In this document: one piece after another, positions 1,967-54,290 of the stretch
Numbering within the stretch: position 1 is the first letter of the stretch
Layout: every line of letters starts with the position of its first letter
NCBI GenBank assembly: GCA_000004985.1
Contig: GG738884.1
DNA length: 64,000 bases
Reading direction: 5' to 3' (one strand)
Source: Naegleria gruberi
Taxonomy: Eukaryota
Notes under the pieces: generated by a model
Told to the model about the DNA's origin: nothing
Database searches by the model: none
Seen by the model: the letters and a program-made list of their open reading frames with translations, nothing else
Position numbers and translations under genes: made by a program

Positions 1967-4468
1967 ATGGTCACATTGGCTTGCAAATCTTGGCTTTTAC
2001 CATTCATGAATGACAATTTAGAAGCGGCTGTGATGAAGAAACCTCTGGAGGAGTATCCCAAACCATCAAAGCAGAGAAATCTTGTTCAAGTTATAGATCA
2101 CAGTGAAAATTTACATTCCGAATCAGTTTCATTCAATGATCTCTATGTGTTACATCTTTCCGATGGGTTTCATTTTGTGACTGCCAAACTCTCTCCCAAA
2201 TCTATTAAGAGATTGTACAAGTAAGTTGAATTTTCAAGAGTAATCAGAATTAATCCTTTTCATCATTCAATTCCTTTATTAATATACTAAAAATCCATTA
2301 CGTTGTTAATACATTCATTGAAATGCAGACGATTTCCCAACTTTAAACCACTTTCCAAACTCAGAGGAGCCATCATTCGACTCGATGATTATTTCTTTGT
2401 GTTGGGAGGTCCCAATCGATCTCTGTGCTCCATTGTTGTTAACAAGTTTGATTATGTTGGAGCTGCATTGTCCGGAACTTTTCGATCTCCCTCTAACCTT
2501 TCTTCAACTCTCTCAAAACACTTTTCCTTCCAAAATCAACAATTAACCAGACTAAACAATCACCTTATTAATCCAAACAACCTCTTCCTTCAAAACAATC
2601 AAAAAAAACTCCATTCACCTCTTCGACCATTCGTTCCTGGAAGAAACTCAATTCTCAATCATCATACTGCTAGTAATAACAACATTGCTTCTCATTCAAA
2701 CAAAAGTAATTTCAACAACCCTCAAGATTCTCACCAACAAAAACAAACCTTCCCAAGCAATATTGTGAATAATAATACTGCAATTGCTCATCCTTTTCAT
2801 AATAACATCATTCAACCAACAATAACATCCTCATCAACAATGAACCAAGTGCAGAGCAATTTTTTCGCGCCATTTTTGAATGTTTTTAGTTCGACCCAAA
2901 AAACAAACGAAAAAATACCACAACATCAACCCTCTGCACCAATTTTGATAACGGAAGAATTGGACAAGACTAAAAGTGCATCAGGAATAGAGGTATTTCA
3001 TCATAACAAACAAGTAGAATTGTTGCAACAAGAACAACATCAAGGAGAGGAAATCATGGATCAACGAAAAGAATTGACCAAGGAGATTACGGTAAATCAT
3101 CACCATATGGAAGATGCACAATTATCACAAAATTCATTCTTTGTGGAGAATGTTGAAGATGCTTGTGAAATTCCAGCCTCTCAAATGGAACAATTAAAGA
3201 GGATGGAAATACCAGGATTTTCCAATGAAGAATCAATGATGGAAATTCCGATTCCTTCAACTCAACAACTTAAAGCACCAGAACCTTCGAATAGTGTTTC
3301 TTCAATTACTGTTACAGAGTTGGTATCGACATCGGTAACATTGCAAAGTGATAATACCGAAGAGGAATACACTCAAAGAAATGAATCACCATCATATGTG
3401 AGAGTGATATCCACCCCACATAAAAGAAGAACAATTACTGGGATACTGTCTCCAGATCTTGAAATTCCTTCGAGGATACCCCAAAAATTAGAAGTGACTC
3501 CTTCAATAATTCAATCACAAGAAATTACAAGTGACAATGACAGTGATGATGCTATGGAAGATGCTCCAGAAATAATACCCTTCTCCTACAGAAGTGGCTC
3601 TGTATTTTCCCCTTCAAGATATAAGAACATGGCTCCTCCTATAGTCTATCTTCACAGTCAAAATTTCCATACTCAAAAGGCTCCAAGCACTCCTTTACAA
3701 TCCTCTTCAATTAATAATAATAATACTTCTGCTGCCAAAGTTGCTTCAAATCAGAACACATTAGAGATTAAAGAAACACCAGTAAAGGACATTGACGAAT
3801 TTCAAGATCTCATAAATCGAAGGAATAATAGAATAGAAGATGAATCATTTGATTCCTCTGAGGATGAAAATGAAAAGTATGAGGCCTACATGAATAGATC
3901 ACTATTCAGAAATCCTTTACATTTGGAGGAGCATGCCTTCAAGAAGCTTGAACAACGTGCATTACCTCATCATAAAAAAATTATTCAAGCTAGGGAGAGA
4001 AGAAGACAGGAAGAGGATCAAAGGTCAAGAACTATTACAACTATTGAGGTAGAAACTGATATTGAAATAACACCAGACACCATGCTGGAAATACTGAAGG
4101 ATCCACCACTTGAAAGTAGAAAGAGACAAATTATTGAGGAAAAACCAAAAGATAATTTGAAAAAACAAAAAACCAATCCTTCACAATCCTCTCCAAACAC
4201 CACAAGTAGTAGTGAAACAGTTACAAAAAATCCTACACAAAAAGTCCTCTCCTCTTCAAGCACTACTACAAAAATTCAGGATTCTCCAAAACCTGTACAG
4301 ACACAACCAAAACCACAAGAATCTTCAAAAACAGTACTGCAGACACAACCAGTATCACAAGCTCAATTACAACAATCATCCAACCAATCAACTAAACGAA
4401 TCGAAAAGAAACCAACTGAAAAACCTAGGAAAAAAGCAAATTATAGCAATTGGTCTGCCTTTTTGTAA
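1967..4468 (+). CDS. RPA70N-like OB-fold N-terminal domain protein with a ~650-aa N/Q/S-rich disordered tail. Exons are 1967..2220 and 2329..4468.
   Basis: GTAAGT donor at 2221 and acceptor aaatgcag at 2328 restore the frame (AA + A). The spliced N-terminus KPSKQRNLVQVIDHSENL...LYVLHLSDGFHFVTAKLSPKSIKRLYKRFPNFKPLSKLRGAIIRLDDYFFVL resembles the RPA70 N-terminal OB fold. No DBD-A/B/C or zinc ribbon follows, only low-complexity sequence. Confidence 0.5.
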
Positions 4469-6985: not shown

Positions 6986-7326
6986 TTTGTTTTTTTGGAC
7001 ATGTGACAGTCTTTAGAATTTAACAGAATGAAATTTCAAATGGGATGGACTATGTATGATTGAATATTCGTGTAATAGTTGTGTCCAATCTTTTGCAGAT
7101 TATGCTTTTGGATTAAGGTGTTGTATAAAAATTCGTCCAGTTTCGAATATACTTTCGCACTGTAAGAAATAATTACATCTTATATAATTGTAAAGGAAAA
7201 GGATTGTAATCAACACAATCCGTAACCTCCAAACTTCCAAAATTCACACAGTGGAACGTCAATGCAAAAACTTTCTAATCACAAATCATTTCGAATAAAA
7301 AAAAAACTCTTTCAACAAGTGAACCG

Positions 7327-8326
7327 ATGAAAAATCGCTCCACAATCCTTCTCACCACTCTTCTGGTTCTCCTTTCTGTTGTTTTTCAACAAGTCAACCT
7401 TGCAACTGGTCAAACATTTAAAAATTGTTATAGACATTCGACAGGTAAACAAATTGAATGGACCATTGATGACACAAACAATGAATTCAGAGCTCTAGTT
7501 ACATTACCTAACGCTAAAGGTTGGGGAGCTTTTGGTTTAAAGACAACTTCTGCTGGTATGACTGGAGCTACCATTGTGATGGCATATTTAGGTTCGAATA
7601 ATGTTACAACGAATATTAATGAAGTAAGTTGATTGTTTGGTTCTCTATCGCATTAACCACCTTGAAAATTCTCCTTTTATTCAACTGCATATTTCACATC
7701 CATGATGGTGATGATAATGATGAATTTTTATTCGAAACTAAAAGTATTATGCTGCTTCGACTACTATTCCAACAAGAATTAAAGCAACAGGCACAACGTC
7801 ATTCACTAACTTTTTCGTTAATGCAGCCATGAATTATACTGGAAATAATTTATATATCCATGTTGTGAGAAGAATGACTCGACCATCCAATGCACCATCA
7901 ACCTATTTCCAATTCACTGGAAAGAGTACAAGTTATGATTTGCTGTTTGCTCTCCACTCTTCCACAAAGCCAAAGAGTGCTGATTCTTTCTTTCAACATT
8001 CTGAAACACTTCACTTGCAACCATTCACATTTTACACACAACAAAATTATTCAATCAATTGTAATGCCACACCAGCAAGGAATATTCCAGTGTTACCTTC
8101 TACCCCACCTCCACCTGCTCCAACTCCTGTTACTAATACTACCAATGGAACAACACCAGTAACATCAACATCAACAACAACAAATTCAACACGTAACAAT
8201 AATACTGCAGTTTCATCATCTTGGAGTATTCACCAAAATGGTGAAAATAGTTTTATTGGAAATTCATTCAAGTGGATTTGCTTTATTGCCTGTTTTGTTA
8301 CCATGTACATTATGAGAAATGATTAG
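7327..8326 (+). CDS. Secreted or GPI-anchored DOMON-domain protein with an S/T/P-rich stalk. Two exons, about 7327..7623 and 7827..8326.
   Basis: There is an N-terminal signal peptide. DOMON-like motifs (EWTIDDTNNEFRALVTLPNAKGWGAFGL ... MTGATIVMAYLG ... LYIHVVRR ... YDLLFALHSS) are followed by a PAPTPVTNTTNGTT stalk and a C-terminal hydrophobic tail. A GTAAGT donor lies at 7624, with a cactaac branch-like element and a cag acceptor ending at 7826. The junction is off by 1 nt (see findings). Confidence 0.55.
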
Positions 8327-14234: not shown

Positions 14235-14260
14235 GTTACTGCCAAGGAACAAGCAGTAAC
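14235..14260. repeat. Perfect 8-bp inverted repeat GTTACTGC-N10-GCAGTAAC within a long divergent intergenic region
   Basis: Read directly from the sequence: gttactgccaaggaacaagcagtaac. It sits in a locally GC-richer patch (14160..14600) of the 1.8-kb gene-free region. Confidence 0.5.
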
Positions 14261-23662: not shown

Positions 23663-23718
23663 ATTGATCTGCTATTTTTCTTTAATTATTAATTTATTTA
23701 AATAAATTACAAAAGAAA

Positions 23719-24600: not shown

Positions 24601-24864
24601 TTCAATACAATCGAATAGCTCAATCATGAAAATGAATAACCAAAACTAAACTGTACAATTCTAACAATCTGATTCCAATTCATCTCTTAAACGTGTAACA
24701 TCATCACCTCTACAAGCAGCTCTCGCTTTAAATCTCATTTCTAATGAGTGTTACCCTTTTCATGGCAGATTACAAATTTCAAACTTTAAATTTACGCTTC
24801 AATTTACAAAAGCTAAATTTAAACCAGAAAACTCAAACTTTCAAAATTCAACAAAACAAAAAAA

Positions 24865-28978: not shown

Positions 28979-29758
28979 TTATTCATCAAAAACAAGTTTG
29001 AGTGGGAATAATGCATTCCAAGGACAATTATTCTCTTCCAGCTGTCCTATCTGCTGCTCACTGTTATTCACTTCTTCAACTTCTTGAATGCTGGAAATGC
29101 AGAGAAATGATCCATCATCAGAAGATGAAACACTCTCCTTTTGATTTTCAAACGATTTTTGTTGAAACTCAACGTGTTGAATATGTTGGAATTCGTTCGA
29201 ATTAGTATGTTGAAATTGTTGATTGCTAGCTTGCTTTCTCTTTCTGGTTCTCTTCTTTTTCTGAGATTTCCAAGATAATTCAAAGTAATTAGATCCAAAT
29301 TCATCATCTGAAACCATCTTTTTCATTCTGAGACATTTTGGAGGAGAAAGAAATTTGTTAGGATGTGGAGGAAGCTTGACTATTTTTTGATATTTTGCAT
29401 GTTTCGTCCTCTTTTCCAAATCTGTTTTCATGTTATGTGAAACCAAGTTTCCACAATTTCCAATACTTTTCATTATTGGTTTGAATACGTTATGATGATG
29501 ATTATGTTGAGAAGAGAGGAAAGGAGGTGTGTTAAACATGCATGAATTCATGTTTGAATGATCATGGATTGGACACATGTTTTGAGAGTATTGCAAGCAT
29601 TCAGATTGATGTTGGTATGGTTGACCTGGATTGGGTTGTTGTGGCACCGTAAAACTATTGCATGTGTGGCAGCTGGCTTGCATTTGATTGTTGTTCACAC
29701 ACTGCAACATGCTTGCTGTATTCGAAAGGTTTGGATGGTGAAGAGATGGTACGTGCAT
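28979..29758 (-). CDS. Hypothetical protein, 259 aa, His/Cys/Gln-rich N-terminus with a basic KKKRTRKRK patch
   Basis: ORF only. There is a possible nuclear localisation signal (SWKSQKKKRTRKRKQ). No domain recognised. Confidence 0.4.
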   Translation of the reverse strand: MHVPSLHHPNLSNTASMLQCVNNNQMQASCHTCNSFTVPQQPNPGQPYQHQSECLQYSQNMCPIHDHSNMNSCMFNTPPFLSSQHNHHHNVFKPIMKSIGNCGNLVSHNMKTDLEKRTKHAKYQKIVKLPPHPNKFLSPPKCLRMKKMVSDDEFGSNYFELSWKSQKKKRTRKRKQASNQQFQHTNSNEFQHIQHVEFQQKSFENQKESVSSSDDGSFLCISSIQEVEEVNNSEQQIGQLEENNCPWNALFPLKLVFDE

Positions 29759-31282: not shown

Positions 31283-33508
31283 TTAGTTTTTCAGAATTAT
31301 ACTCATGGTTTTTTGTGGATCATCAAATGGACATGCCAATACTTCACAACATCCAAGAGTTGAATCACTCATGTCGAGATCAGTCATTTCAAAAACATTT
31401 TCCTGTTTTTCATAGAGTGGTCTCATGTCTGGATTATCCTTGAATGCCAAGTGTCGAATCCAAAATGCTCTATCAAATCCTTTGAGTAGAATCCATTCAT
31501 TCTTATGATTGTGCTTAAAATCTGGATCCTTAGTTTCCAATTGTTTAACAAAGAGATCCAATTCGGAGTGAGTTAGGAATTTCTTGACCTTTTCCTTAAT
31601 GGAAAACTTTTCTCTAAAGGCAGGGTTTAGTTTAATTTCCATCTGGCATCTTCCATATTTACGCATATCTCGCATGTATTGTCCCATTGGACTGTCACTG
31701 TTGAGTAGATTTTCCAACACTTCTCTCTTTCCAATACTATCCAAAATGTCAAAGATGAAATCTTGGCAATTACCAGTATTCACATAATTTTTCAATGATT
31801 TGCTAGATTTCTTAGGTTTTTTAGATTTCTTCTTTCGTTTTCTCTCGCTATAAATCATGGTGGTATTCCATCGACAAATTACCTCGGAAAGTTTCTTTAC
31901 AATATCTTCCAAATCGTGAGCTGTCGTAATTTCTTCAATATCTGCTGAAAAGAAACTAGATTGAGAACTTAATTTACGTGGTATACATAGTGAGCTATCT
32001 GTCCATTCAAGTTTAAATTCTGAAATGACAAGAGCTGTATGGAACATGCCAAATGCAGGAAGAATTTTAACTGGTGACAAGAGTGGGCTCACTATTTGAC
32101 GAATAGTTTGTTTCGTCTTGTTATGGTGATGCATATCTGTCACAATCAACTTGATTTTGATGGATTTTTCAAGAGTTGGATTCGAACGCCACCAATCTTT
32201 CAAATTATCTTCTGACAAATTTTCAGTAAATGATCCCTGAGTATTATTACTTGTTCCAGCAAATGATTCTGAAAGTCCAGCACTTGTCATGGAAGCTCCA
32301 ATATTTGCAGAATTGCTCTCAATTCCATGATGACTCAATGTCAAATCTCTTGGAATATCAGCTGCTGCACTACTTCTTGTTAAATTACTTCCTGGAGTTG
32401 ATTGTTGAATGTTTGAAGGAGTATTTGATGAATTATTGATGAATTGAGGTGGTGTCATTAATACCTGATCCATTACAATACTAGTGGTGAGAGCTGTAAT
32501 TGGAGTATGATTAGAATGTAAGTTTGGAGTATTAGAAACTGAATTACTTGTTGGTTTCTTGATTGGAGTGTTATTGTTACTATTGGCGAGGTCTAGAATT
32601 TCATCTGACCACTTGACTTCCTTCTTATTAGTTTGATTTGAGGAATCGTCTACTGTTTCACTTTGTGAAGTAATATTATTCGAAAGACCTTCAAATACTT
32701 TGGCTACATTTTCTTGAATCATATTCGAAGAACTATTCTCAAAATCCATCTGAGAAAGTCCAACATCAAACGAAAGTATTTCATCAAGTTCTTTCTTTTC
32801 ACTTTCCAATAAATTTTCTTCATTTCCTGAGTCACTTTCGTTCAATGTTTTTTCTGTTGTAGCTTTAGCACTTGCAATAATTTCATAGAATTGTGGAGAG
32901 AATAGATGCATATTCTTTGCATTCTTCTTTTTGACCGTATGATTTAAAGTAGCATTCAAGGAAGAAGAATTATTCGAAAGTGTATTTTCAGAAGAAGAAA
33001 CATTTTCAGTTTTTTCTTCATTTTCATGAATATGTTCATCTTCACCTGCACTGCTCATCATTTCACTTTCTAACATTCTCACCTTCTCATCCCATTGTTT
33101 CGTAATTGTATTATCCAAGTTTAGGTAAGTTTCCAACATACTCTTCGGATCAGACAAACACATTGAATAACGTTCCATAATATACTCATCATTATGAATA
33201 TCTTCAAAAAGCACACAATTCTTAATTTTCGAATAAGTTACCCTTTGCGGAGGTAAAAGATGTGCCGGAGCATTTAAATTAGCATGATTAATTAATTGTT
33301 GATACATTTCTTCATCGATAATGATGGAATTTGTTGTGGTTGTGGTTTGTATTGATGAATTGTGAGTGGAAGTTGATGTAGAGTTGTGAGTTTCAGAATT
33401 TGTCTGATTGAAAGAGTCAGTTGATTGGTCATGTTGATGGGTGGCAGGTGGCAGGGAGTTGTTGTTGTTGGGGTTATCACCAGCTAGACGGCTAGTTTTG
33501 GAACCCAT
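31283..33508 (-). CDS. N-myristoylation-motif protein with a long low-complexity region and a C-terminal PPPDE/DeSI-like (permuted papain fold) putative peptidase domain
   Basis: Starts MGSKTSR (Gly2, Ser6 consensus). C-terminal motifs FGMFHTALVI and NTGNCQDFIFDILDSIG, ~75 aa apart, match the His...NCNhF catalytic dyad arrangement of PPPDE/DeSI proteins. Confidence 0.5.
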   Translation of the reverse strand: MGSKTSRLAGDNPNNNNSLPPATHQHDQSTDSFNQTNSETHNSTSTSTHNSSIQTTTTTNSIIIDEEMYQQLINHANLNAPAHLLPPQRVTYSKIKNCVLFEDIHNDEYIMERYSMCLSDPKSMLETYLNLDNTITKQWDEKVRMLESEMMSSAGEDEHIHENEEKTENVSSSENTLSNNSSSLNATLNHTVKKKNAKNMHLFSPQFYEIIASAKATTEKTLNESDSGNEENLLESEKKELDEILSFDVGLSQMDFENSSSNMIQENVAKVFEGLSNNITSQSETVDDSSNQTNKKEVKWSDEILDLANSNNNTPIKKPTSNSVSNTPNLHSNHTPITALTTSIVMDQVLMTPPQFINNSSNTPSNIQQSTPGSNLTRSSAAADIPRDLTLSHHGIESNSANIGASMTSAGLSESFAGTSNNTQGSFTENLSEDNLKDWWRSNPTLEKSIKIKLIVTDMHHHNKTKQTIRQIVSPLLSPVKILPAFGMFHTALVISEFKLEWTDSSLCIPRKLSSQSSFFSADIEEITTAHDLEDIVKKLSEVICRWNTTMIYSERKRKKKSKKPKKSSKSLKNYVNTGNCQDFIFDILDSIGKREVLENLLNSDSPMGQYMRDMRKYGRCQMEIKLNPAFREKFSIKEKVKKFLTHSELDLFVKQLETKDPDFKHNHKNEWILLKGFDRAFWIRHLAFKDNPDMRPLYEKQENVFEMTDLDMSDSTLGCCEVLACPFDDPQKTMSIILKN

Positions 33509-34008
33509 TTAAATGTTGTTGTTTGATAGTATGTTGTGTGTTATGAATTTTGATTTTTTTTTAAATTGTTTTTTGGCGGGCAATGATTGGTGACATTTTT
33601 ACATGAGCATGTTCATTCTACCACAATCTTATTTAAGGTTGTGGTGATTTCATTGAAATTGGATTCAAAGTTTTTTAAAGGTTAGTTTTTGATCAAACTC
33701 TTCACATTGTGGAGTTGGAACTATTCGAAAGTTGTAGCAAAACCTGGCTAAAGATCTCATAGACTGTTTCACAAATTGAAACCCAAGATTGATAAGAATG
33801 AAAAAGAGAGAATGTTGGTGATTGGAATTATTGATGAGTTGAATTTATTAATAATTAAGAAATTAAGCAAATCAGTTGCACATATATATTATCATTATTA
33901 TATGTAAAAATGGTGATTGGAGCGAGAGTGGACATCATCTCCCTTATTAGAGTTATTAGTTTATTGAATCACACACAATATTTATCTTCTTCATCAGGAG
34001 ATTTAGAA

Positions 34009-35109
34009 TCAGAATTGAAATTTTCCAAAACCATCCTCATTACCTCCATGTAATTCATTCCGTGTTGATGATCTAAATCCAAGAAATGTTAAACTGGGCA
34101 TTGATTTCACAAGTAAAAACCCCTCTTGTGTGATGGGATTTCTTCCAATTTGCAACTCTTTCAAATGTCGCATTTCACTTATTGAGCTGGCTCCTTGGAA
34201 TCCAATTTGATTTTCTCTCAAATCGAGAATTTCCAAAAACGAAAGTTTTGAAAGGCACTTGGCACCATCGTTTCCAATACGATTGTACGTGATGGATAAT
34301 TGTTTCAATAATTCTAGTTGACCAATTTGTTTGGCTCCTTCATCACCCAAATTATTGTAATTAGCATCCAAATATGTTAATTTCTTCAATTTACTTAAAT
34401 ATTTTCCTGATTCACTTGATAAAACATTTCCAGAAATATTTAAATGTGTTAAATTGCATAATTCACTCAAATATTGAGCTCCTTTATCTCCTAAATAATT
34501 TGAATCCACACTTAGTAATGTCAAGTTGGTCAATTTGGTCAAATATTGAACTCCTTCACCAATTGAATTATTAAAAAGATTCAATTTGGTCAATTGGGAC
34601 ATTTCACTAATTATTTCAACACCAATCGCTCCAATACTATTACCTCCCATATTAAGAGATTTTAAATTAGTCAACCTCTTCTTCATTAAAACAATACACG
34701 ATTTTGTTACCTTATTAAATGAAACATCAAGTTCCTCTAAATTTTTCAATTTGCAAAAATGTTTAAAACCCTCCTTTGAAATTTCATTACATGTTAAATT
34801 TAAATATTTCAAATTTATCAAATGGTGAATTTCTGAAATATTCTCATCTTTAAAACAGTATGCTTTGGCTTCGTATCTTTGAATATTATTGACTAATTGA
34901 CTGTTTTTAACAATTTCCAAATTTACAATAGAAGGAGTGATGGAAATTGGTATGTTGCGTTCGATAATTATTCGAAACCATTGTTTGGAAAGTAGAAAAC
35001 AACAAAGAATACTTTTAGAATCTAAAAATGTTAAAATTTCATAACAAATATCATCGGGAAAGGTTGAATGTGGAGGTGATGAATTGATCAGCGAATCATC
35101 TTGTTGCAT
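34009..35109 (-). CDS. F-box/LRR-repeat protein
   Basis: First ATG is at 35109 (MQQDDSLINSSPP...). F-box: DICYEILTFLDSKSILCCFLLSKQWFRII. About ten tandem LRRs of 24-26 aa follow (LTxLxxLDxSxNxIGDxGAKxLS pattern). Confidence 0.7.
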   Translation of the reverse strand: MQQDDSLINSSPPHSTFPDDICYEILTFLDSKSILCCFLLSKQWFRIIIERNIPISITPSIVNLEIVKNSQLVNNIQRYEAKAYCFKDENISEIHHLINLKYLNLTCNEISKEGFKHFCKLKNLEELDVSFNKVTKSCIVLMKKRLTNLKSLNMGGNSIGAIGVEIISEMSQLTKLNLFNNSIGEGVQYLTKLTNLTLLSVDSNYLGDKGAQYLSELCNLTHLNISGNVLSSESGKYLSKLKKLTYLDANYNNLGDEGAKQIGQLELLKQLSITYNRIGNDGAKCLSKLSFLEILDLRENQIGFQGASSISEMRHLKELQIGRNPITQEGFLLVKSMPSLTFLGFRSSTRNELHGGNEDGFGKFQF

Positions 35110-37399: not shown

Positions 37400-38932
37400 T
37401 TATTCAATGCTGAAATTAGAACTGTTACCCTGTCTGTGTTCAATCAAATCAATTGAAGAACGAACATCTGTACAATATTCGAAAAGAACACCAACCAGAG
37501 CTTCATCCTTGTTGGTTTTGATTTCAGCCAAAAGTTGACCTTCTTTTCTGTCTTCAAGAGTGACATGAGTAGTTGGGTGATTCTCATTCAAAGATCCATG
37601 CCACACTTGTCCAATCTTATCGTGTGTAATACAGTGGAGTGTATATCCAAGTTTGAGAGGCAATGTCTCAACAATAACAACCCTACTCGAGGTAATCATG
37701 TAGTGAATGCCCTGATAGACTGGAATGAGTTTAACCAAACTGGTGTGAGTAAGGAAAAAGACAATAATGATAGAAATTTCCCACAAGAATAATGAAATAA
37801 TAATACTCTCCAACAAGACAAGTGAAAGAATGGCCATAATGAACATGATGAAGAATGTTGGAATGACCAAAATCCAAAATATCATCAACATTCTCAATGT
37901 ACTCTTTCTAGAACGTTTCATATTGTCTGTTGAAGGTCTTTCATAGTAGAGGAGTGTTTCATGTTCTTCAGTGGCAGTACTTCTCATGAGTAAATAAACT
38001 GGATGTACCTTATTACCATCATCATTGGTATCGAGTGAGGCAAGAGCAATTTCTTGAAGTTGTGAAGTTGGCTCCTCATCTTGTTGATTGTTTTCCGATA
38101 ATAACAATGCTCTCTTATCAAGTCTTAAAAGAACTTCCTTGTGTCTTTCTGTTGGATCTTGCAAAATAACATTCATTGAAGAGCTCTCCTCCAATCTGTA
38201 TGTTGTTGAATCTCCGCTCAACACGAACGGATCCTTAATAACTTGTCTAACAAATCTATCAAGTGAAAACTTGCTTCTTCCCTCAAAGTAGAAAAATCCA
38301 AACAGAATATAACCAACAATAATAATTAGAACAATAATTAATGCAAGTGGAATGGCCCAATACAACTCTGCAATGTACTGTCTGGTCATATCCATTCGGA
38401 GAGAAATATTAATACTATTTCCTCCAATATTATTAATCTTTTTAGTGGCAAATCTCTCAACATTTGCTTGAATAGCATAGCAAGTGAATGAATCGTCATG
38501 ATCACTTCCAATATATTCCTCCAGACACTTCTTACTCTCTGCAGATGAAGAAGTCTTACAAAAATCATCCCATAGCACTGATGATAAAACAACCAAGTCT
38601 TGTCCATTAGTACTAGCATCATCATGATACAGGGTAACATTGAGAATATAATAATAATAGGTAGAAGAGGAATCAGCACCCTTGTATTCAATCAATGATG
38701 GAGCACTCTCATCAATATATTTACAATCATATGATTTGTAGTGTAGTATCGAAGAGGTATCAACAGATAAACACATGGCAATAAATAACGCATTCACAGT
38801 TATCAAACATAACAGTAATAAACTCCATAGCCATCGTGGTACTTTAAGAAAAGTCTTTGAAGTCATGTTCCCATAGAGGAGGGAATTATCGGATGATCCC
38901 GAACATTTCAATAGGTTCATAACTTTATCCAT
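37400..38932 (-). CDS. Multi-pass membrane protein (hypothetical, 510 aa)
   Basis: ORF with ATG at 38932. There is an N-terminal signal/TM segment, an extracellular Cys-containing region, and at least 4 further hydrophobic helices (LALIIVLIIIVGYILFGFFYF, MLMIFWILVIPTFFIMFIMAILSLVLLESIIISLFLWEISIIIVFFL). Confidence 0.45.
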   Translation of the reverse strand: MDKVMNLLKCSGSSDNSLLYGNMTSKTFLKVPRWLWSLLLLCLITVNALFIAMCLSVDTSSILHYKSYDCKYIDESAPSLIEYKGADSSSTYYYYILNVTLYHDDASTNGQDLVVLSSVLWDDFCKTSSSAESKKCLEEYIGSDHDDSFTCYAIQANVERFATKKINNIGGNSINISLRMDMTRQYIAELYWAIPLALIIVLIIIVGYILFGFFYFEGRSKFSLDRFVRQVIKDPFVLSGDSTTYRLEESSSMNVILQDPTERHKEVLLRLDKRALLLSENNQQDEEPTSQLQEIALASLDTNDDGNKVHPVYLLMRSTATEEHETLLYYERPSTDNMKRSRKSTLRMLMIFWILVIPTFFIMFIMAILSLVLLESIIISLFLWEISIIIVFFLTHTSLVKLIPVYQGIHYMITSSRVVIVETLPLKLGYTLHCITHDKIGQVWHGSLNENHPTTHVTLEDRKEGQLLAEIKTNKDEALVGVLFEYCTDVRSSIDLIEHRQGNSSNFSIE

Positions 38933-40571: not shown

Positions 40572-41075
40572 TTTGATGGAATATTTTGTTTGGAATTAAA
40601 TTGTTATATGTATTTGCTATTTTTCAATATTCGAATAGTTTAGAATAAATTCTATGGGAAAGTTTGGATGAAGGCTTGGTTTTAGCCTAATGTTTTATCT
40701 TTGAAAGCTTAGGAAGAATTGGGAATTGACAATTTTTTCTTGTATTAAAAATTACGATTTTTGTTTTTGGTGGCATTTCAAGGCATGTCATATGGAGATA
40801 CAAGTTTACTGCACTTTCGAATAATATGTAAAACAATTGTAGGATTTGAAGGAGGGTGACAAGGAGAAGACTTTGGTTGATTGAATTCGATATTGAAAAA
40901 TAGGAGTGTTTAATGTCATAATAGTTAAATGGTGTTGACATGTTCTAATTTGGGAACTTTAAAAAAGGAACAAATTCAATTTCATATTTACAAAGTTTTA
41001 ATAGGAAATCAAACTGATCAATAATTTTGAAGGTGGAATGAGAAGGTGAATGAATTATAGAAAATTCACACAATA

Positions 41076-42371
41076 TTATTGGAAAGATATGGAAATATCT
41101 GAAACTTTACAACCAGTGTAACAATCATAGAGTCTATTTCTGAAACGAGAGGGTTTTTCTGAATGTCTATGATCGAAAGCAACACAGCAATGCCAACCTG
41201 CATTCACAACAGAATTGTAAGCTGCTCCATTTCTTAATTCTCTTGTTCGAACAGCAATTTCGTCCAAATTCATCACCTGGACGAAACTATACTTTTTGTG
41301 AGTGAATGCAGTTTTAAAGTCGCCAAACATTTCAGCCACAAAAAATACATCATTCTTTGCATTGATGAGATAGTGACCTCGAGAAAAACATCCAATTCGA
41401 ATACAAGAATCCAAGTTCAAAAGGTTTGATTGTTCCATAAAATTGGGTTGACCATCCATGTTAATACCAAAAGTAATTTGATTTAAATTGTCAAAACCTG
41501 CAGCAAATACTCGTCCATCCCATGTTCTGAAAACACAATGGAAAAAACCACATTGTACATCAGCAATAGGTCCCATCACTGATTTGGTTACTGATTCAAA
41601 TTTAGGACCTAAAATGTGATCATTTTCCAGTGTTGAATTTATACCCAGCTCTCGCTTAATATACTCTGAAGATTCATAAACATGAATATTATCAAACTTA
41701 TCCACTAGCACAATACCTGTGTTTGTAGCACTTCCACACTTGATTTCAACCTGTGGATAATTTAATGTGGTTTGTAATTTCCCACTCAGATCCACAATTT
41801 TCCAATCTTTGAATTGAACCAAAAAATAGGGAGAAACAGGTCCTGTAATAATCTTGATCGCCTCCTGTTCCAATGTCAAGAAATTCACAAATTCCAATGT
41901 TGATCCCAATTTCAACACATGTCTATTCCACCGATCCACAATATAAAAGTCCGAATAATTTCTAAAATATTGACCAGGAATAAATTGAACCTTCTCAGGA
42001 ATGTACTTTTCAATATCGACAATCATTCCCTTGCATTCCACCTTCTTAAGGAATGTCATTTCGGGATAATTATACACCTCAAGAGTGTGATTTTCAGTGG
42101 TTGCATGTTCGGTTTTATATGTATCGTGAATGGGTCTCAACATCATCAACCGATCATCGGGCAACACGAAACAAAATTTCCGATCACCAGCAAATATTAA
42201 TTTGTATGAAAAATCGAGTTGAACAAAAACAAAACTCTTTGATACTTGTTCAATTGGAATATCTAAATTGAAATGAATTAATTATTAATTAATAGAGGAA
42301 TTTAATAAGGCTAAATACTAACCATGTGATTCAAATCCGCAACAGTAAAGGAACGAGCTGCATGATGACAT
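41076..42371 (-). CDS. Hypothetical protein with RCC1/beta-propeller-like repeats. Exons are 42371..42323 and 42262..41076.
   Basis: A 49-nt first exon (ATGTCATCATGC...CACATG) is followed by GTTAGT, and the 60-nt intron ends tcaatttag. This restores the frame with the long ORF, whose upstream part FNLDIPIEQVSK... is otherwise open but lacks an ATG. Repeats such as GFFHCVFRTWDGRVFAAGFDNLNQ and GWHCCVAFDH resemble RCC1 blades. Confidence 0.5.
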
Positions 42372-42461
42372 TTTTTTTTTAAATTTAGAAAATTATTCGA
42401 ATCAAATTCTGATACAATTACAATGAATTGTTTATTGATTGATTTTTTCATATTTCTTGAA

Positions 42462-44264
42462 TTAAAATATGCCATACTTTCCAGGAGAGAGAATATTATT
42501 AGGATCAAGCGTTTTCTTTAAAGTTTGAAGAAGAGGTGGAACTGCATTATTGTCTTGTAACCAATTGACTGATTGAATTCCCAATCTGTATGGAACGTAG
42601 CCCAGTTTTTGACCTGCGTTCATTAGTTCATGATAGCACACTTGTGCACGTTTCATTTCTTCCTCATTATTTCTATCAAATAATAGAGGAATAGTACCAA
42701 CGCAACATCTATCCGAAAGACTGGTCAAAGTCATGAGTGGTTCAGTTTTGTGTTTCTTACAAATTTCATTGACCATTGAGGTGAATGAGTTCAAGTCTTG
42801 AGGAGTGATTGGTATGAGTGGATTGTACCAAATAATACCAGCTCCATCTTTGGATGGATTCCAAGGTTTATCTGTTGGTCTTTCACCTGATTTCCAATAA
42901 GCAATACGAAGACCAGTTTCATTTGGAATACCAGAAAATAACTCTAAAGATTTGGAAAGAACATTCGCATAGGTTGCCAAGTGTGTCTTGTTCACAATTG
43001 GAATTTGGTTTAAAAAGCTGGAAGTGGAGTGGACGAAATTGGCAGAAAGAAAGATATTTCTCTTACTTCCATACCTTCTCAAAATCTTCTTGATATCACT
43101 TCTTGCAGCTTTGATCACTGCAGAACTGCCATACAAATTACCAACTCCGTTCCATGCTGTGAATTGATTCTTCTTACAGAACGAATCAATATACGATTGT
43201 GGTAGCATTCCATCGACTGCTTGATCTTTCGGATAAGGCCCAGCCATAGGCACCATGGCATAGTTATTGATTAGTTTTACAGAACCAATAATTCCATTAG
43301 AACATCTCAAGATTTCTTTGGAAGCAGAAACAGCATTCGAAAGGTCATCAAAAAAGAAGAAGAAACTTTCAACCTTTTCTGGTTTAGGATACAAGGCAAT
43401 CGACATCTTGGTTACAATTCCCAAATTACTTTGAGAAAACAAACCCTCCAAATAAGGACCAGTTTGCCATTTGTAAAGTGTGGAAACATGTTTCCCGCCC
43501 ATTTTGTCCAACATGGATTCATGGACATTACCTGTTGGTAACACAATTCTCATACTTGTAGCAGCACCAAAATGATCAATGTATGGTGAGATTCCATATC
43601 CTCTTTCCAGAGCATTGGAAAGTAAACTACATGTTGGACCAGCACCAGTAACAGGAACTGTATAGTCAAGATTCCTTTCTTGTAAATAATCCAAAAGTTG
43701 TTGTTGAGTAACACCTGGTTCGACATGTGCAACACCATTTTCTTCATCCATATCTAATCTTGTCATTTTACTCATCTTTAACAAGACAGTTCTTTGATTA
43801 GTGGCAGGAAGAGCTGAGCCATAACCCCAATTCTGACCAGAACTGACAGGATTTAAAGGTACTTGATATCTGTTGGCTATCTTGACAATCTGAACAACCT
43901 GATCATGACTTGTTGGATAAACAATAGCTGGAACGTTTCGAATATTTCCAGAGCAATCAGCAAGCTCTCTCGAAAGACTTTCCTCATCTGTTGCCACATT
44001 AGTTGCACCAACAATAGAACGAAAGTGTTCCAGAGCTCTTGCCAACAAAATATCACCATTCGTCAAAGAGTCTTTGTTAGTAATCTTGAGTGAAGCTTGC
44101 TCGACATGTGAAAGCTCTTCTTTGACTTTCAATGGAGAATGAGTAATAATAGAAGATGAAGAATAGAAAGAGAGTGTATTAGGTGAAGTATTATTGGTAA
44201 AAGAACCAATGAACAACAACTTATTCTTATGGACATTCGCTAATTGATTTCGAATAGTTTTCAT
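42462..44264 (-). CDS. FAD-linked oxidoreductase, PCMH-type FAD-binding domain (VAO / D-lactate dehydrogenase family), probably mitochondrial
   Basis: 600-aa ORF with a basic N-terminal presequence-like leader. The FAD_binding_4-type block reads VPLNPVSSGQNWGYGSALP...VLLKMSKMTRLDMDEENGVAHVEPGVTQQQLLDYL...VPVTGAGPTCSLLSNALERGYG. A C-terminal oxidase domain follows. Confidence 0.75.
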   Translation of the reverse strand: MKTIRNQLANVHKNKLLFIGSFTNNTSPNTLSFYSSSSIITHSPLKVKEELSHVEQASLKITNKDSLTNGDILLARALEHFRSIVGATNVATDEESLSRELADCSGNIRNVPAIVYPTSHDQVVQIVKIANRYQVPLNPVSSGQNWGYGSALPATNQRTVLLKMSKMTRLDMDEENGVAHVEPGVTQQQLLDYLQERNLDYTVPVTGAGPTCSLLSNALERGYGISPYIDHFGAATSMRIVLPTGNVHESMLDKMGGKHVSTLYKWQTGPYLEGLFSQSNLGIVTKMSIALYPKPEKVESFFFFFDDLSNAVSASKEILRCSNGIIGSVKLINNYAMVPMAGPYPKDQAVDGMLPQSYIDSFCKKNQFTAWNGVGNLYGSSAVIKAARSDIKKILRRYGSKRNIFLSANFVHSTSSFLNQIPIVNKTHLATYANVLSKSLELFSGIPNETGLRIAYWKSGERPTDKPWNPSKDGAGIIWYNPLIPITPQDLNSFTSMVNEICKKHKTEPLMTLTSLSDRCCVGTIPLLFDRNNEEEMKRAQVCYHELMNAGQKLGYVPYRLGIQSVNWLQDNNAVPPLLQTLKKTLDPNNILSPGKYGIF

Positions 44265-44522: not shown

Positions 44523-46122
44523 GTCACAAAAACACAACATTCTCCTCATCTTTCGTCGATTTGTAAGTTTCGGCGGGTGTGCCTTCTGCAATAGACGAAT
44601 GGTAGAGTTGATGGAATTTTACAGATCGCTCACACAGTTGAACATTGTACCAATTGTTGTTTATCCGGAAACTGAGGAAAGAGGAGAAGATTTTTTCAAT
44701 TCTGTAAGTTTACTACTGTTCAATGTTCAATAATATTAAATATTAAATACTATATTTACAATAATAATTAACTATTACTATTGAATATTTAACAACTTAC
44801 AAAAAAAATATTTAAAGTGGGAAATTCCCGAAATTTCATCACTCATTCGCGTTCCCGATCCAAACAATGAATTCGCCACTGTTTTTGATATTTACTCCGG
44901 CTCAGTTTCCAAAAAAGTAATCCTGACCTATCTCATTCCACAACTACTACTCACCAAAATGGATGGATTCTCACAGGAACGTAAGAAGAGGGATGAATAC
45001 CATGGGAAAAGTTTCTACATTCGACCTGCAATGTTTCTGATTAGGAGAGGGAAGGTCATCCATTCGTGGCGATTGAATTATGCCGATCATTGTCCTAAGG
45101 TTTTGGAAGAAATTGTTTTGAAATTGGATTTGAAAAGTGGTGGAGGTGATGATTTGGAAAGTTTGAAAATGAATGAGAAAAATGTTGTGAAAATTGAAAG
45201 TAAGAAAGTTATTGGAAAGGAAGAAGAGATGTTGAATGAAGTTTCTAATGAAAATGAAACAAGGAAGGAAGAATGTCAAAATGTAATAATGGAAATGGAA
45301 TTGAAAGAATGTGAATCTCAAATCAAGGAACAAATTCAAATGGAAGAAACTAAACTTGACGAATCTACCCTTCAAACCATTGAAATTTCCACACAAATCG
45401 ACATGCCAATCATTGACACTTCTAGAGAAATTCCAATCTACAAGAGAAAACAAGCAAGCTCATCATTGGAAATAATCACACCAACTGAAAAGAAGGAAAA
45501 TGAAAAAATTCAAACAATCAAAGCAAAGAAATCTCTCCAACCTAAATATTCCTGTTTTGGAAATCGAAATGTGGTAGGAGATTCGGATTTGAACATGTTG
45601 GTAGTTTTGGAAAATCCGAAACTTCGTAAATATTTCAAACTGTTTGCACATATGGAATTTAATATTGAGAATATTCTATTTTGGGAAGAAGTTAATACTC
45701 ACTACAAGCCAATTGCTTCATTTTCCAAATTTGACAAGACGAAATCAATTGCTACAAGTATTGGAAACCTTTTCCTATTCGATTCTCATTCAGTCATGCA
45801 CGTAAATACTTCGGATAAATTAAGGGAACAAGTAAGGGAACAAATTCAATTTCATTTCGAATCAAAATCCATTACTGAACTATTACCATCGAAATATAGA
45901 GTTAATAGATCATTAGAAGACACTGCTGTCGATCCACTTTCGAATACACCAGAAGAATCTGACAACATTTCACAACTTTCAATTGCTGATCGATTTAATG
46001 AAACAGTTACTGGAATATTTGATCCCATCATTAACGAAATGTTATCCTCTTCCATACAGGACATGTTTTTAAGATTCAGGACAAGTGATTTATTCTCCCA
46101 AATGATTTCTTCAGTAAAATAA
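44523..46122 (+). CDS. Thioredoxin-fold (PRXL2/AhpC-TSA_2-like, CxxC) :: RGS-domain fusion protein. The 5' end is lost in the gap. Exons are 44523..44703 and 44818..46122.
   Basis: The frame is open from the gap edge: ...ILLIFRRFVSFGGCAFCNRRMVELMEFYRSL, which resembles the PRXL2 motif VLFVRRPGCVLCREEA. A GTAAGT donor lies at 44704 and acceptor tttaaag at 44817. The thioredoxin fold continues (YHGKSFYIRPAMFLIRRGKVIHSW), followed by an acidic linker and an RGS domain (LENPKLRKYFKLFAHMEFNIENILFWEEVNTHYKP...FDPIINEMLSSSIQDMFLRFRTSDLF). Confidence 0.6.
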
Positions 46123-46245: not shown

Positions 46246-46657
46246 ACAAGAAGAACAAGCTGGTACTCACTAGTTTCGTATTGACCTTATGGTTTCACAT
46301 TTTGTAATAAAAAAGTTTTAACAAGTTGCGTTTTCAAAGGTATTACAATCCAAAAGAGTGAGGTGAATGGATATTGTTATTTCGATTTCCTTATGTCGTT
46401 CATAATCATGAAATGTCATGATTATTTTTTTTATTGACATGTAAATGGTTCCAGTTGGGTTAATCGATGTTTCGAACAATATTGAGAGATTACCTCTTGA
46501 ATGTAGCTACAATTCATGATAAATCAGCTTCCATTACAAATATTCGTGAGCCTCTCCCGTGATTTTGATTTGCTTTTTTGGAGTATTACATATTGTTTCG
46601 AATAGTTTCCACAAGTTATAATAAAAATCAAGAAAAAATAGAGTAACAACAATAATA

Positions 46658-53339: not shown

Positions 53340-54290
53340 TGTAAAGGTCAACTTTAAATGTTCTGGTTGACCTTCCAAGGATGTGTGGTGGCATCCAGAT
53401 TAGAAAGTATTAGAAACTTCTTAAGCATGGATATCTAGATATGGAAAGCGAATATTTCTATAAATGCATTTTTGTATGAGCAACTTGGGAAAGTGAAGAT
53501 ACGATACAACGAAACTGTAATGATACGTTTGTATGCCACGTCTGGAGATTGGCTTCGCACATGATTTTAAGCAATTTGGCAAAACAACTTTTTTGTGTTT
53601 TAAAGTGCTTTATTTTGAAACAACACAAGAAATCAAACAACAATCTTTTGATAATTAGCTGAAGATTGAGCCAACTTTGAAATCTTTTCAAATAACATCA
53701 AGTCTTTATTCAATAATTGCCAAATCCTTAAAATTTTCATCTCACGATCTGGCAATTTCTGCAAACTAGTTGAGAATAGGTTTAGTTTAGTCTTGTCCAC
53801 CTTCTATTTCAGTATTTTGTTGAAACACTGAAAACCGCTACATATCCATCTCCACTAATTTTAAAAATCTAGTCATCAAATATGGAATATTTAAAAATCT
53901 CTATATAAAACCCTTCCTTTACTTATTGGCGATCGCTACAATGCAATTCCTTAATAGCTTTATTCGAAACTTAGAAAGTCTTTATAGCCAAGCTTCAAAC
54001 ACTATCAAAAAAACATTCAAACTGGTTTAGAGCATTTGTTCAGTCTTTAATTCAACGTTTCGTACAAAATAGACAGCTTACTTTAATTTATTAGAAACTC
54101 CAAGCTAACCTAAAGGTTTCGAATACTTCATCCCTCCTATTTCAAATTTACTTCCTCGATCAGTCAATAAGAAACTTGGTCATTGTACATTTCAGATAAG
54201 CTGTTATCTAAAAGAAATTTAATATTTATGTAGATTGCTGACAAGTTGCTTATTTGGAAACACCTAATTTATCTAAAACAACATTTTGCA

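Follow-up and report, generated by a model that had tools for sequence, protein, structure and literature searches.

Does a short CpG-containing word that recurs ahead of genes in Naegleria gruberi serve as a promoter element? The question is raised by the DNA just upstream of a DOMON gene (ATG at 7327), where a sequence-only reading had picked out TTCGAA(T/A), as it did ahead of many other genes of the window, the 64-kb stretch analysed here. Proteins with 100% identity place the window in the nuclear DNA of N. gruberi: of the 12 gene models that were compared with public proteins, eight agree at every residue with NCBI N. gruberi proteins (seven of ten in one comparison, plus the FAD oxidase gene), and a ninth, the LON-RING gene, has 100% identity to an N. 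gruberi protein with a different annotated start. The DNA is AT-rich and CpG-poor, as had been stated, with a GC content of ~34% and a CpG observed/expected ratio of 0.42. Word counts were set against dinucleotide-preserving shuffles, first-order and third-order Markov models and a codon-aware model. Location was assessed by circular-shift permutation, with distances running to ATGs rather than to mapped transcription starts. The statistics draw on these 64 kb together with 66 kb from relatives.

TTCGAA is indeed too frequent for chance, with 53 copies in the window against 17.1 +/- 4.4 in dinucleotide-preserving shuffles (TTCGAAW, 89 against 23). The individual sites listed by the sequence-only reading at 7142, 7290, 33724, 39084, 40630, 42396, 46471, 46597, 49170, 53963, 54118 and 56143 are present, 0-10 bp from where it had put them, while two are inexact: that placed at 24610 reads AATCGAATAG, which has TCGAATA and lacks TTCGAA, and that at 13750, given as a near-match, reads GTTTCGAGAAT rather than an exact TTCGAA. 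Its figure of ~11 promoters with a copy is about right (~10 carry TTCGAA), although it reflects a selective view in which only upstream copies were counted. The motif does not simply sit just 5' of genes, as 36 of the 53 sites are coding and 17 non-coding, and the observed/expected ratio under the first-order Markov model is equal in the two compartments (3.07x coding, 3.15x non-coding). An equal density in coding sequence, which that reading had itself named as evidence against a promoter role, is essentially what TTCGAA displays (0.75 per kb coding and 1.06 per kb non-coding, at the same observed/expected ratio). A motif confined to promoters is rejected on these grounds.

The non-randomness seen in TTCGAA(T/A) is real but the motif was drawn too short, since all of the TTCGAA excess belongs to a longer asymmetric word, TTCGAATA / (G/C)TTTCGAATA. 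In the window TTCGAATA occurs 33 times, 22 of them coding and 11 non-coding, against 2.12 +/- 1.38 in shuffles and 6.7 expected under the third-order Markov model, and it is the top over-represented 8-mer under both first- and third-order models. TTTCGAATA occurs 23 times against 0.8 expected and STTTCGAATA 19 times against 0.22, such that 8- to 10-mers stand 15-86x above the first-order (dinucleotide) expectation. TTCGAA sites without the TA extension number 21 against ~15 expected (a subtraction of the ~2 expected TTCGAATA from the ~17 expected TTCGAA), and within the window they are not associated with gene starts. A T occupies position -1 in 23 of the 33 TTCGAATA copies, and GAAT is followed by A and then W, giving a full consensus of STTTCGAATAW. 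The 27 one-mismatch neighbours of TTTCGAATA, when pooled, are merely 1.7-2.3x enriched. Because the real word is asymmetric (TTTCGAATA 23 times, TTTCGAAA three times, TATTCGAATA once), the self-complementarity of TTCGAA that had been offered as a feature is incidental. A palindromic dimer site is likewise rejected, given that independent half-sites predict 41.6 of the 53 TTCGAA sites, that the extended word is asymmetric and that the doubly extended palindrome occurs once. The TTCGAATA copies are as follows; those at 7140 and 7290 fall within the interval that the sequence-only reading had marked.

TTCGAATA, 3286..3293, plus strand: coding, sense, frame xxT-TCG-AAT-A, gene 2291-4465+
GTTTCGAATA, 7140..7149, plus strand: non-coding, 178 bp upstream of ATG 7327 (DOMON gene)
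TTCGAATA, 7290..7297, plus strand: non-coding, 30 bp upstream of ATG 7327, adjoining an A10 run
TTCGAATA, 7593..7600, plus strand: coding, sense, exon 1 of the DOMON gene, +266 from ATG
GTTTCGAATA, 7729..7738, minus strand: between the two DOMON coding segments (probable intron 1)
CTTTCGAATA, 29719..29728, minus strand: coding, sense, about +32 from ATG 29758 (NAEGRDRAFT_51005)
CTTTCGAATA, 32677..32686, minus strand: coding, sense, gene 31286-33508- (NAEGRDRAFT_70512)
TTCGAATA, 32722..32729, minus strand: coding, sense, gene 31286-33508-
CTTTCGAATA, 32971..32980, minus strand: coding, sense, gene 31286-33508-
TTCGAATA, 33228..33235, plus strand: coding, antisense, gene 31286-33508-, about +277 from ATG
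CTTTCGAATA, 33722..33731, minus strand: non-coding, 214 bp upstream of ATG 33508
GTTTCGAATA, 34969..34978, minus strand: coding, sense, F-box/LRR gene 34012-35109-, about +134 from ATG, with rare Arg codon CGA
TTCGAATA, 37476..37483, minus strand: coding, sense, 3' end of gene 37403-38932-
TATTCGAATA, 40628..40637, no single strand: non-coding, 57 bp upstream of ATG 40571, the sole doubly extended palindromic copy, equal to two overlapping 8-mers
CTTTCGAATA, 40814..40823, plus strand: non-coding, 245 bp upstream of ATG 40571
TTCGAATA, 41396..41403, plus strand: coding, antisense, gene 41079-42146-
TTCGAATA, 42394..42401, minus strand: non-coding, 248 bp upstream of ATG 42146
GTTTCGAATA, 43935..43944, plus strand: coding, antisense, FAD oxidase gene, conserved gap-free block (N-I-R-N)
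TTCGAATA, 44249..44256, plus strand: coding, antisense, 8-15 bp inside ATG 44264 (FAD oxidase gene)
CTTTCGAATA, 45937..45946, plus strand: coding, sense, 3' part of RGS-domain gene 44959-46119+, 716 bp upstream of ATG 46658
GTTTCGAATA, 46595..46604, plus strand: non-coding, 54 bp upstream of ATG 46658
TTCGAATA, 46759..46766, plus strand: coding, sense, +101 from ATG 46658
GTTTCGAATA, 47115..47124, minus strand: coding, antisense, +457 from ATG 46658
GTTTCGAATA, 53961..53970, minus strand: non-coding, 323 bp upstream of ATG 54291
GTTTCGAATA, 54116..54125, plus strand: non-coding, 166 bp upstream of ATG 54291
GTTTCGAATA, 54336..54345, plus strand: coding, sense, +47 from ATG 54291
TTCGAATA, 54494..54501, plus strand: coding, sense, +203 from ATG 54291
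CTTTCGAATA, 54633..54642, plus strand: coding, sense, +344 from ATG 54291
CTTTCGAATA, 54819..54828, minus strand: coding, antisense, +528 from ATG 54291
GTTTCGAATA, 55501..55510, plus strand: coding, sense, +131 from ATG 55372 (NAEGRDRAFT_70526)
GTTTCGAATA, 63211..63220, minus strand: coding, antisense, +265 from ATG 62946
TTCGAATA, 63253..63260, minus strand: coding, antisense, +307 from ATG 62946

Inside genes the word overrides synonymous codon choice. Serine in the context xTT-Ser-AAT-A is written TCG in seven of nine cases (78%) against a baseline of 6.5% (Fisher P 4e-7 for TCG use in the T-Ser-AAT context), and the number of such contexts is as expected, so that the shift is confined to codon choice. 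Among coding TTCGAA sites, the frame xxT-TCG-AAx accounts for 21 against 6.3 expected. The copy at 43935..43944 writes an invariant Arg of the FAD oxidase with the rare codon CGA; as it does so within a gap-free conserved block, it represents a substitution in place and not an insertion. An insertion or excision footprint is rejected on the same gap-free protein block and on the normal number of xTT-Ser-AAT-A contexts. The word arises by point substitution in place, even at the cost of rare codons, and it is kept up as DNA, in coding as well as non-coding sequence, with a similar excess of TTTCGAATA in both (15 against 0.48 coding, 8 against 0.33 non-coding).

These counts bear on whether the word is a by-product of composition, arising from the use of Phe-Glu (TTC-GAA) and Ser-Asn (TCG-AAT) together with TT and AA as the commonest flanks of surviving CpGs. 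For the hexamer such an account goes some way, since a codon-aware shuffle lifts the coding expectation from 12 to 24 (36 observed) and the prediction from independent half-sites, given above, also speaks for it. It breaks down on the 15-86x excess of the 8- to 10-mers, which for the 8-mer persists under the third-order Markov model, on the equally strong signal in non-coding DNA, and on the Phe-Glu frame itself, which is if anything depleted (10 against 14.9). In addition, the rise in TCG use occurs only where the full word can be completed, and N. lovaniensis, which is similar in composition to N. gruberi, lacks the N. gruberi word excess. We consider a compositional origin scarcely credible.

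Enrichment near gene 5' ends holds for the refined word and fails for TTCGAA without TA. Within +/-400 bp of a start codon lie 24-25 of the 33 TTCGAATA copies against 12.7-15.7 expected (circular-shift P = 0.002-0.007), a bias that survives the removal of possible internal exons, and these copies have a median of 233 bp to the closest ATG, against 425 bp for all positions. Both compartments contribute: each of the 11 non-coding copies has an ATG no more than 330 bp away (P = 0.002), at 30-323 bp, and 13 of the 22 coding copies are within 400 bp (P = 0.005). Copies stand at 0.7-0.9 per kb within +/-400 bp of an ATG, at 0.18 per kb in genes beyond their first 800 bp and at 0.1 per kb further than 400 bp upstream (one copy in 10.3 kb), whereas other CpGs vary just ~1.5x across the same position classes. 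The bias belongs to the complete word only, as the partial words GTTTCG, CGAATA and TTCGAA without TA show no start bias in the window. Copies are gathered in clusters at roughly a third of genes, with 13 of 45 coding-segment starts having one within +/-400 bp. The variance/mean ratio in 2-kb bins is 2.4, a value reached by none of 2000 random CpG subsets, and because the sites are clustered the effective sample is perhaps 10-13 gene neighbourhoods. Tracking of CpG density was rejected as a cause (rho = 0.14). So were repeats or paralogy as carriers, there being no flank similarity and, among site-bearing genes, no paralogy beyond one weak pair. No functional theme is evident among the site-bearing genes from their Pfam content.

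The same distribution argues against a core-promoter element. Elements of the TATA/Inr/DPE type hold a fixed position and orientation and are present at most promoters, none of which is seen here. Relative to the nearest ATG the copies range from -716 to +998 without a mode and keep no fixed distance (-327 to +350 and beyond), and about half of the start-proximal ones are downstream of the ATG within coding sequence (13 copies at -400..0, 12 at 0..+400). Orientation is mixed, with 21 copies in the same sense as the gene and 12 opposite (coding, 14 sense and 8 antisense; upstream, 7 same-strand and 4 opposite). The eight divergent intergenic regions of the window, equivalent to 16 promoters, contain no copies, whereas tandem gaps do. 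What the window has as a general promoter-proximal signal is a sense-strand A-run adjoining the ATG, present at 15 of 36 starts. The original proposal of a core-promoter or palindromic transcription-factor site 40-250 bp upstream of start codons agrees with the distances of the 11 non-coding copies and with the ~10 promoters that carry TTCGAA. Set against the coding majority of both TTCGAA (36/53) and TTCGAATA (22/33), the variable distance and orientation, the asymmetry of the word, the empty divergent regions and the A-run, it retains next to no plausibility in that form. The part of it that endures is the candidate site of transcription-factor type, which is the best current reading.

The many copies in the first 400 nt of coding sequences, with their rare codons, and the mild sense bias there (14 to 8) could instead point to a signal acting in the RNA, in the 5' portion of the message, either a site for an RNA-binding protein or a 'ramp' of rare TCG/CGA codons. 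Mixed orientation overall (21 against 12) fits recognition of DNA rather than RNA. Of the 33 copies, 12 are antisense or opposite and 11 are non-coding, several of these more than 150 bp upstream, and a codon ramp needs no 9-10-nt context extending across four codons. In N. lovaniensis genes the corresponding copies are 6 sense to 5 antisense. A signal in RNA is accordingly improbable.

Relatives of N. gruberi carry a sister word, TTCCGAAT, one base off. In 44 kb of N. lovaniensis it occurs 14 times against 2.0 expected, its neighbours being at 1.4x, and for 13 of the 14 copies an annotated ATG is no further than 450 bp away (permutation P = 1e-4), the word having been chosen after the fact among enriched 8-mers. 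In N. fowleri there are four copies against 1.0 expected, all at +116 to +569 from an ATG as obtained by subtracting copy positions from gene calls, and TTCGAATA has no copies in the N. fowleri sequence examined. Willaertia shows no excess of the word in the sequence examined. Within the genus the form changes between TTTCGAAT and TTCCGAAT. In these comparisons (G/C)TTTCGAATA is specific to the N. gruberi lineage. At the level of single sites, a metagenomic strain keeps six of six, although at ~98% identity it is too similar to be informative. Intergenic TTCCGAAT copies are not conserved individually between N. lovaniensis and N. fowleri, and the N. gruberi orthologue of the LON-RING gene has nothing corresponding to the copies in the N. 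lovaniensis gene. Such non-conservation fits fast turnover of sites and also a non-functional drive. The FAD oxidase loci of N. lovaniensis and N. fowleri lack synteny with the window, and the sequence L001 is syntenic solely with a motif-poor stretch of it.

A drive of this kind would need no regulatory reader. Sequence-specific repair, gene conversion or mutation bias in open, transcribed 5' chromatin could build up the word, for which very-short-patch repair and the molecular drive behind the spread of bacterial DNA uptake sequences are models; in eukaryotes we know of no repair or conversion mechanism of this type. The equal relative excess in coding and non-coding DNA, the overriding of synonymous sites nearly to saturation, the one-base difference between species (reminiscent of the 'dialects' of bacterial DUS), the quick turnover of single sites between N. 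lovaniensis and N. fowleri and the lack of a common functional theme all speak for it. The CpG-to-TpG neighbour TTTTGAATA is also absent (0 against 4.5 expected). Conversion of that one neighbour cannot yield 23 copies, given that only ~4.5 were to be expected; the flux needs many neighbours, which implies a force on the whole word. Moreover, the decay product on the opposite strand, TTTCAAATA, is undepleted (5 against 4.5), and tolerance alone does not explain a 5'-proximal gradient so steep that 10.3 kb beyond 400 bp upstream hold a single copy. A methylation-linked form of repair bias or CpG decay would be without substrate and is rejected, as N. gruberi has almost no 5mC (0.28%) with no CpG preference (PMC12344493) and its CpG depletion exists despite very low 5mCG (PMC12695648). 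Overall, a non-adaptive origin is unlikely, though it deserves serious weight.

Our preferred reading, to which we give a probability of roughly one half from the statistics on 64 kb of N. gruberi and 66 kb of relatives, with ATGs as reference points, is that the word is a candidate lineage-specific binding site for a factor at gene 5' ends and not a core-promoter element. It displays the over-representation with a defined consensus and the enrichment near gene 5' ends expected of sites for transcription factors or general regulatory factors. We infer that a sequence-specific DNA-binding protein would recognise (G/C)TTTCGAATA at gene 5' ends, acting as a promoter-proximal regulatory or chromatin-organising factor in the style of Drosophila DREF/BEAF or yeast general regulatory factors. 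Given how little intergenic DNA there is, sites would fall within the transcribed region as well as ahead of it, and N. lovaniensis and N. fowleri may use the one-base site variant TTCCGAAT. A genome-wide switch of one base between congeners is unusual for a transcription-factor site, and the lack of a functional theme, the eight divergent regions without copies and the turnover of sites between relatives count against the binding-site reading. As a bolder and more tentative possibility, each species might have its own genomic word (TTTCGAATA in N. gruberi, TTCCGAAT in N. lovaniensis and N. fowleri), with thousands of copies in promoters and the first few hundred coding bases that override codons and are read by a putative lineage-specific general factor marking or insulating gene 5' ends, factor and word having switched together by one base. 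For binding to GTTTCGAATA, the proposed comparison probes are GTTTTGAATA and GTTCCGAATA.

To our knowledge almost nothing has been described of cis-regulatory DNA in Naegleria or in Heterolobosea generally, and literature searches for TTCGAA, TTCGAATA or TTCCGAAT with Naegleria gave only primers and unrelated uses, with no paper found describing the word. If the density of the window held genome-wide, N. gruberi would carry of the order of 10,000-20,000 copies. The word would then open a way to its reader protein, through DNA-affinity purification for instance, and would mark where genes begin in a compact protist genome. It would also be a clear case of a DNA-level signal dictating synonymous codons (TCG use from 6.5% to 78%), and the one-base difference between N. 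gruberi and N. fowleri/N. lovaniensis would offer a tractable instance of rapid motif co-evolution or drive.

Among known systems, HSF (TTCnnGAA) and STAT (TTCnnnGAA) sites share inverted TTC/GAA half-sites with the Naegleria word, but these half-sites abut in TTCGAATA (spacing 0) and are 1 nt apart in TTCCGAAT, where the HSE needs 2 and the GAS 3. The heptamer TTCGAAT is also the centre of the tRNA B-box GGTTCGAATCC, and sites bound by TFIIIC only near Pol II promoters form boundaries in yeasts and humans. Extra-TFIIIC (ETC) or B-box-like sites would agree with the promoter-proximal location, and an insulator or roadblock of this type would suit copies in tandem and not divergent intergenic gaps. 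The flanks differ, however: TTCGAATA copies depart from the B-box consensus GGTTCGANTCC (G53, C56, C61), with T for G53 and A/W for C61-C62 in STTTCGAATAW, and the extra C of the sister word TTCCGAAT breaks the B-box. The single tRNA gene of the window, tRNA-Asp at 61968-62038, has no TTCGAA. This identity is a long shot.

Bacterial DNA uptake sequences (Haemophilus USS, Neisseria DUS) resemble the word in being exact 9-10-mers in tens-fold excess across coding and non-coding DNA, with tolerant reading frames and one-base species variants. An exact-word excess with frame bias, as in such 9-12-mers, is what we observe, but uptake sequences are not associated with gene starts, in contrast to the 5'-proximal gradient here, and they depend on competence machinery, of which we know none in eukaryotes. 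The intron-mediated-enhancement signals of plants (TTNGATYTG / CGATT; Rose laboratory), which work in exon and intron context, are like the word DNA-level signals in transcribed sequence a few hundred bp past the start; sequence and organism differ, and roughly half of the Naegleria copies precede the ATG.

Comparable in style are the Drosophila DRE (TATCGATA, bound by DREF) and the CGATA clusters of BEAF-32, short and sharply defined CpG words with AT-rich flanks that are orientation-independent, occur in clusters and, at some genes, are concentrated no more than a few hundred bp from the start. The Naegleria word differs from them in sequence, runs hundreds of bp into coding DNA, reshapes codons and shifts by one base between congeners. 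The sites of yeast general regulatory factors (Reb1 TTACCCG, Abf1, Cbf1, Sap1) are high-information words, often with a CpG, near many promoters, and both factor and motif usage switch between related lineages. Their place is the nucleosome-depleted region ahead of the transcription start, whereas Naegleria copies are also found in coding sequence. Reb1 acts in addition as a roadblock between tandem genes, a role that would suit the presence of Naegleria copies in tandem rather than divergent intergenic regions.

TTCGAA occurs 53 times in the window, compared with 17.1 ± 4.4 in dinucleotide-preserving shuffles, and TTCGAAW 89 times for 23 expected. This bears out the sequence-only reading that the motif is too frequent for chance in CpG-poor, AT-rich DNA (GC about 34%; observed/expected 0.42 for CpG and 0.60 for TpA). 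Ten of the promoter sites it named prove to be exact TTCGAA, no more than a few bases from where they were placed, but those at 24610 (AATCGAATAG) and 13750 (GTTTCGAGAAT) are inexact. Its upstream placement of the motif was a selective view, as coding sequence holds 36 of the sites (0.75 per kb) and non-coding sequence 17 (1.06 per kb). Relative to a first-order Markov expectation the excess is equal (3.07x coding, 3.15x non-coding), and since it is identical in both compartments the hexamer is not promoter-specific, by the equal-density test that the reading had itself proposed. The compartments are reliably drawn because 8 of the 12 gene models compared with public proteins, built from open frames and an iteratively trained codon score, match NCBI N. 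gruberi proteins at every residue (7 of 10 from one comparison set plus an FAD oxidase), and a ninth, a LON-RING gene (17611-19683, minus strand), is 100% identical to its predicted protein with a different annotated start. LON-RING orthologues stand at 66% in N. fowleri, 64% in N. lovaniensis and 58% in Willaertia magna. Genes are densely packed throughout, with short GT-AG introns.

The signal resides in a longer word. With all 8-mers ranked against Markov expectations, the top 8-mer of the whole window is TATTCGAA/TTCGAATA, with 33 copies for 2.2 (first-order) or 6.7 (third-order) expected; a separate count of TTCGAATA gave 33 versus 2.12 ± 1.38. In the aligned copies position -1 is T in 23 of 33 and -2 is G or C in 19, giving the consensus (G/C)TTTCGAATA(A/T). 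The 10-mer STTTCGAATA has 19 copies (0.22 expected) and the 9-mer TTTCGAATA 23 (0.8 expected), compared with three of TTTCGAAA and one of the full palindrome TATTCGAATA; the word is therefore asymmetric and the self-complementarity of TTCGAA, to which attention had been drawn, is incidental. It is also sharp: its 27 one-mismatch neighbours, pooled, are just 1.7-2.3x enriched, and the neighbour TTTTGAATA is absent from the window (4.5 expected). TTCGAA lacking the TA extension has 21 sites for an estimated ~15, our subtraction of the 8-mer from the hexamer expectation. Two other over-represented 8-mers, CCTTAATA (14 versus 2.1) and GTTTCGTC/GACGAAAC (9 versus 0.7), have no gene-start association.

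Measured to ATGs rather than to mapped transcription starts, the median distance to a start codon is 233 bp for the 8-mer and 425 bp for all positions. Within ±400 bp lie 25 of the 33 copies (15.7 expected; circular-shift permutation P = 0.002), or 24 versus 12.7 with possible internal exons left out (P = 0.002). Each compartment shows the bias by itself: all 11 non-coding copies are 330 bp or less from an ATG (P = 0.002), and 13 of the 22 coding copies no more than 400 bp (P = 0.005). The word reaches 0.7-0.9 copies per kb between -400 and +400, then thins to 0.41 per kb at 400-800 bp and 0.18 further into genes; more than 400 bp upstream it is at 0.1, and non-motif CpG density changes only about 1.5x across the same classes. 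Partial words (GTTTCG without AATA, CGAATA without TT, TTCGAA without TA) lack the start-proximal bias. The 8-mer sites, 21 same-sense and 12 opposite, do not track the other CpGs in the window (rho = 0.14) and are over-dispersed (variance/mean 2.4 in 2-kb bins, matched by 0 of 2000 random CpG subsets), a clustering that reduces the effective size of this 64-kb sample. The site clusters are:

7.1-7.7 kb
32.7-33.7 kb
40.6-44.3 kb
45.9-47.1 kb
54.0-55.5 kb

The word keeps close to gene 5' ends on either side of the ATG, has no fixed orientation and forms clusters at about one third of genes. Methylation-linked explanations are weak because N. gruberi carries 0.28% 5mC without CpG preference (PMC12344493) and is CpG-depleted independently of 5mC (PMC12695648). 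In this organism with almost no 5mC, non-motif CpG observed/expected declines from 0.53-0.57 immediately upstream of ATGs to 0.29 at more than 800 bp into genes, a mild CpG-island-like gradient; CCGG is nearly missing from coding DNA (2 versus 20 expected), with no deficit in non-coding DNA (7 versus 5.2).

TTCGAA is missing from the window's eight divergent (5'-5') intergenic regions, which total 4.5 kb and serve 16 promoters, but has 16 sites in tandem (3'-5') gaps, an asymmetry with P estimated at about 0.01-0.03 in a test picked post hoc. It might mean that the motif serves as an insulator or roadblock between tandem genes. The divergent gaps lacking TTCGAA are:

418-1082
2008-2290
5834-6109
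13588-15383
23663-23718
44265-44958 (a 50-N run at 44473-44522 is an assembly gap)
51371-51710
59132-59531

Separately, 15 of 36 start codons have a sense-strand A-run of at least 7 no more than 200 bp upstream, often adjoining the ATG, and all 29 AAAAAAAA/TTTTTTTT 8-mers fall within ±400 bp of a start. Compared with the word, these runs look like the more general signal of promoters or 5'UTRs in the window. Examples, with the tRNA gene discussed below, are:

7297-7306, sense strand, A-run
24858-24864, sense strand, A-run
49069-49075, sense strand, A-run
62310-62317, sense strand, A-run
61968-62038, plus strand, tRNA-Asp (GTC) gene

Since the tRNA gene lacks TTCGAA, its B-box is not the motif. 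Specific tests went against each of the core-promoter, compositional, RNA-level and B-box/ETC readings of the word.

Coding sequence carries an imprint of the word. A synonymous-codon shuffle yields 24 coding TTCGAA for the 36 observed; the Phe-Glu frame TTC-GAA is slightly under-represented (10 versus 14.9) and the frame xxT-TCG-AAx 3.3x over-represented (21 versus 6.3). The rare codon TCG, 6.5% of Ser overall, is used at 7 of 9 serines in the context xTT-Ser-AAT-A and at 3 of 28 where AAT lacks the following A (T-Ser-AAT versus the rest, Fisher P = 4e-7). These peptide contexts are not inflated in number, so the shift is in codon choice. In the FAD oxidase (NAEGRDRAFT_51010; 42465-44264, minus strand) one copy lies in a gap-free conserved block with an invariant Arg written CGA, which argues for substitution in place and rules out insertion as the source of copies. 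Antisense coding copies (8 of 22) and non-coding 9-mers (8 versus 0.33 expected) share the extended consensus, ruling out a peptide or codon-pair explanation. An exact, asymmetric, lineage-specific 9-10-mer is maintained as DNA, whether the sequence around it is coding or not. The equal excess in the two compartments, and permissive synonymous sites near saturation, count in favour of the main rival, a non-adaptive drive in which repair or gene conversion is biased within open chromatin at gene 5' ends; the steep 5' gradient and the lack of depleted neighbour pools big enough to supply 23 copies make this doubtful. The oxidase itself, whose N terminus is extended by about 70 residues, scores 48% against both Methylomonas 4-cresol-dehydrogenase-like flavoproteins and its N. 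lovaniensis counterpart, which suggests that Naegleria acquired the gene from bacteria long ago.

N. lovaniensis, sampled over 44 kb (L001, L003), shows no enrichment of TTCGAA (23 versus 18.4) and only a weak one of TTCGAATA (6 versus 2.1-3.4), but a sister word one base different, TTCCGAAT, noticed post hoc, occurs there 14 times for 2.0 expected (neighbours 1.4x). Of these 14 copies, 13 are no farther than 450 bp from an annotated ATG (permutation P = 1e-4), mainly at +90 to +450 in either orientation. In 22 kb of N. fowleri (L004) TTCGAATA was not found and TTCCGAAT occurs four times (1.0 expected), always at +116 to +569 from an ATG by our subtraction of the positions from the gene calls. 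The N. gruberi window has just three TTCCGAAT, two near gene starts by our arithmetic, and Willaertia sequence shows no word excess. Where N. lovaniensis and N. fowleri share coding copies, the surrounding sequence is highly conserved and the copies are uninformative; intergenic copies are not conserved between these species. Near their 5' ends the M17 peptidase and GSHPx genes of N. lovaniensis have several TTCCGAAT-like words that are unmatched at aligned N. fowleri positions, and the N. fowleri M17 gene has one copy elsewhere. The stretches compared are:

L003 16650-17040 with L004 18300-18740
L003 12880-13260 with L004 12830-13280

Such unmatched sites indicate rapid turnover, which, like the one-base switch of 'dialect' between species, counts in favour of drive. 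A metagenomic contig (L005; ENA ERZ929261, k127_169701), about 98% identical to the window at about 30.3-33.9 kb, keeps 6 of 6 TTCGAA sites, an identity too close for testing constraint; a close strain was therefore present in that environmental sample.

No description of the word was found in the searchable literature. It is best classed as a promoter-proximal cis-element, and at roughly even odds we take it for a putative recognition site, through which a sequence-specific DNA-binding protein would act on the 5' ends of genes. Drosophila DRE/BEAF sites and those of yeast general regulatory factors are similar in style, and plant downstream enhancing motifs are likewise tolerated within transcribed sequence; the word's unusual traits are its exactness, its codon-usage imprint and its one-base switch within a genus.
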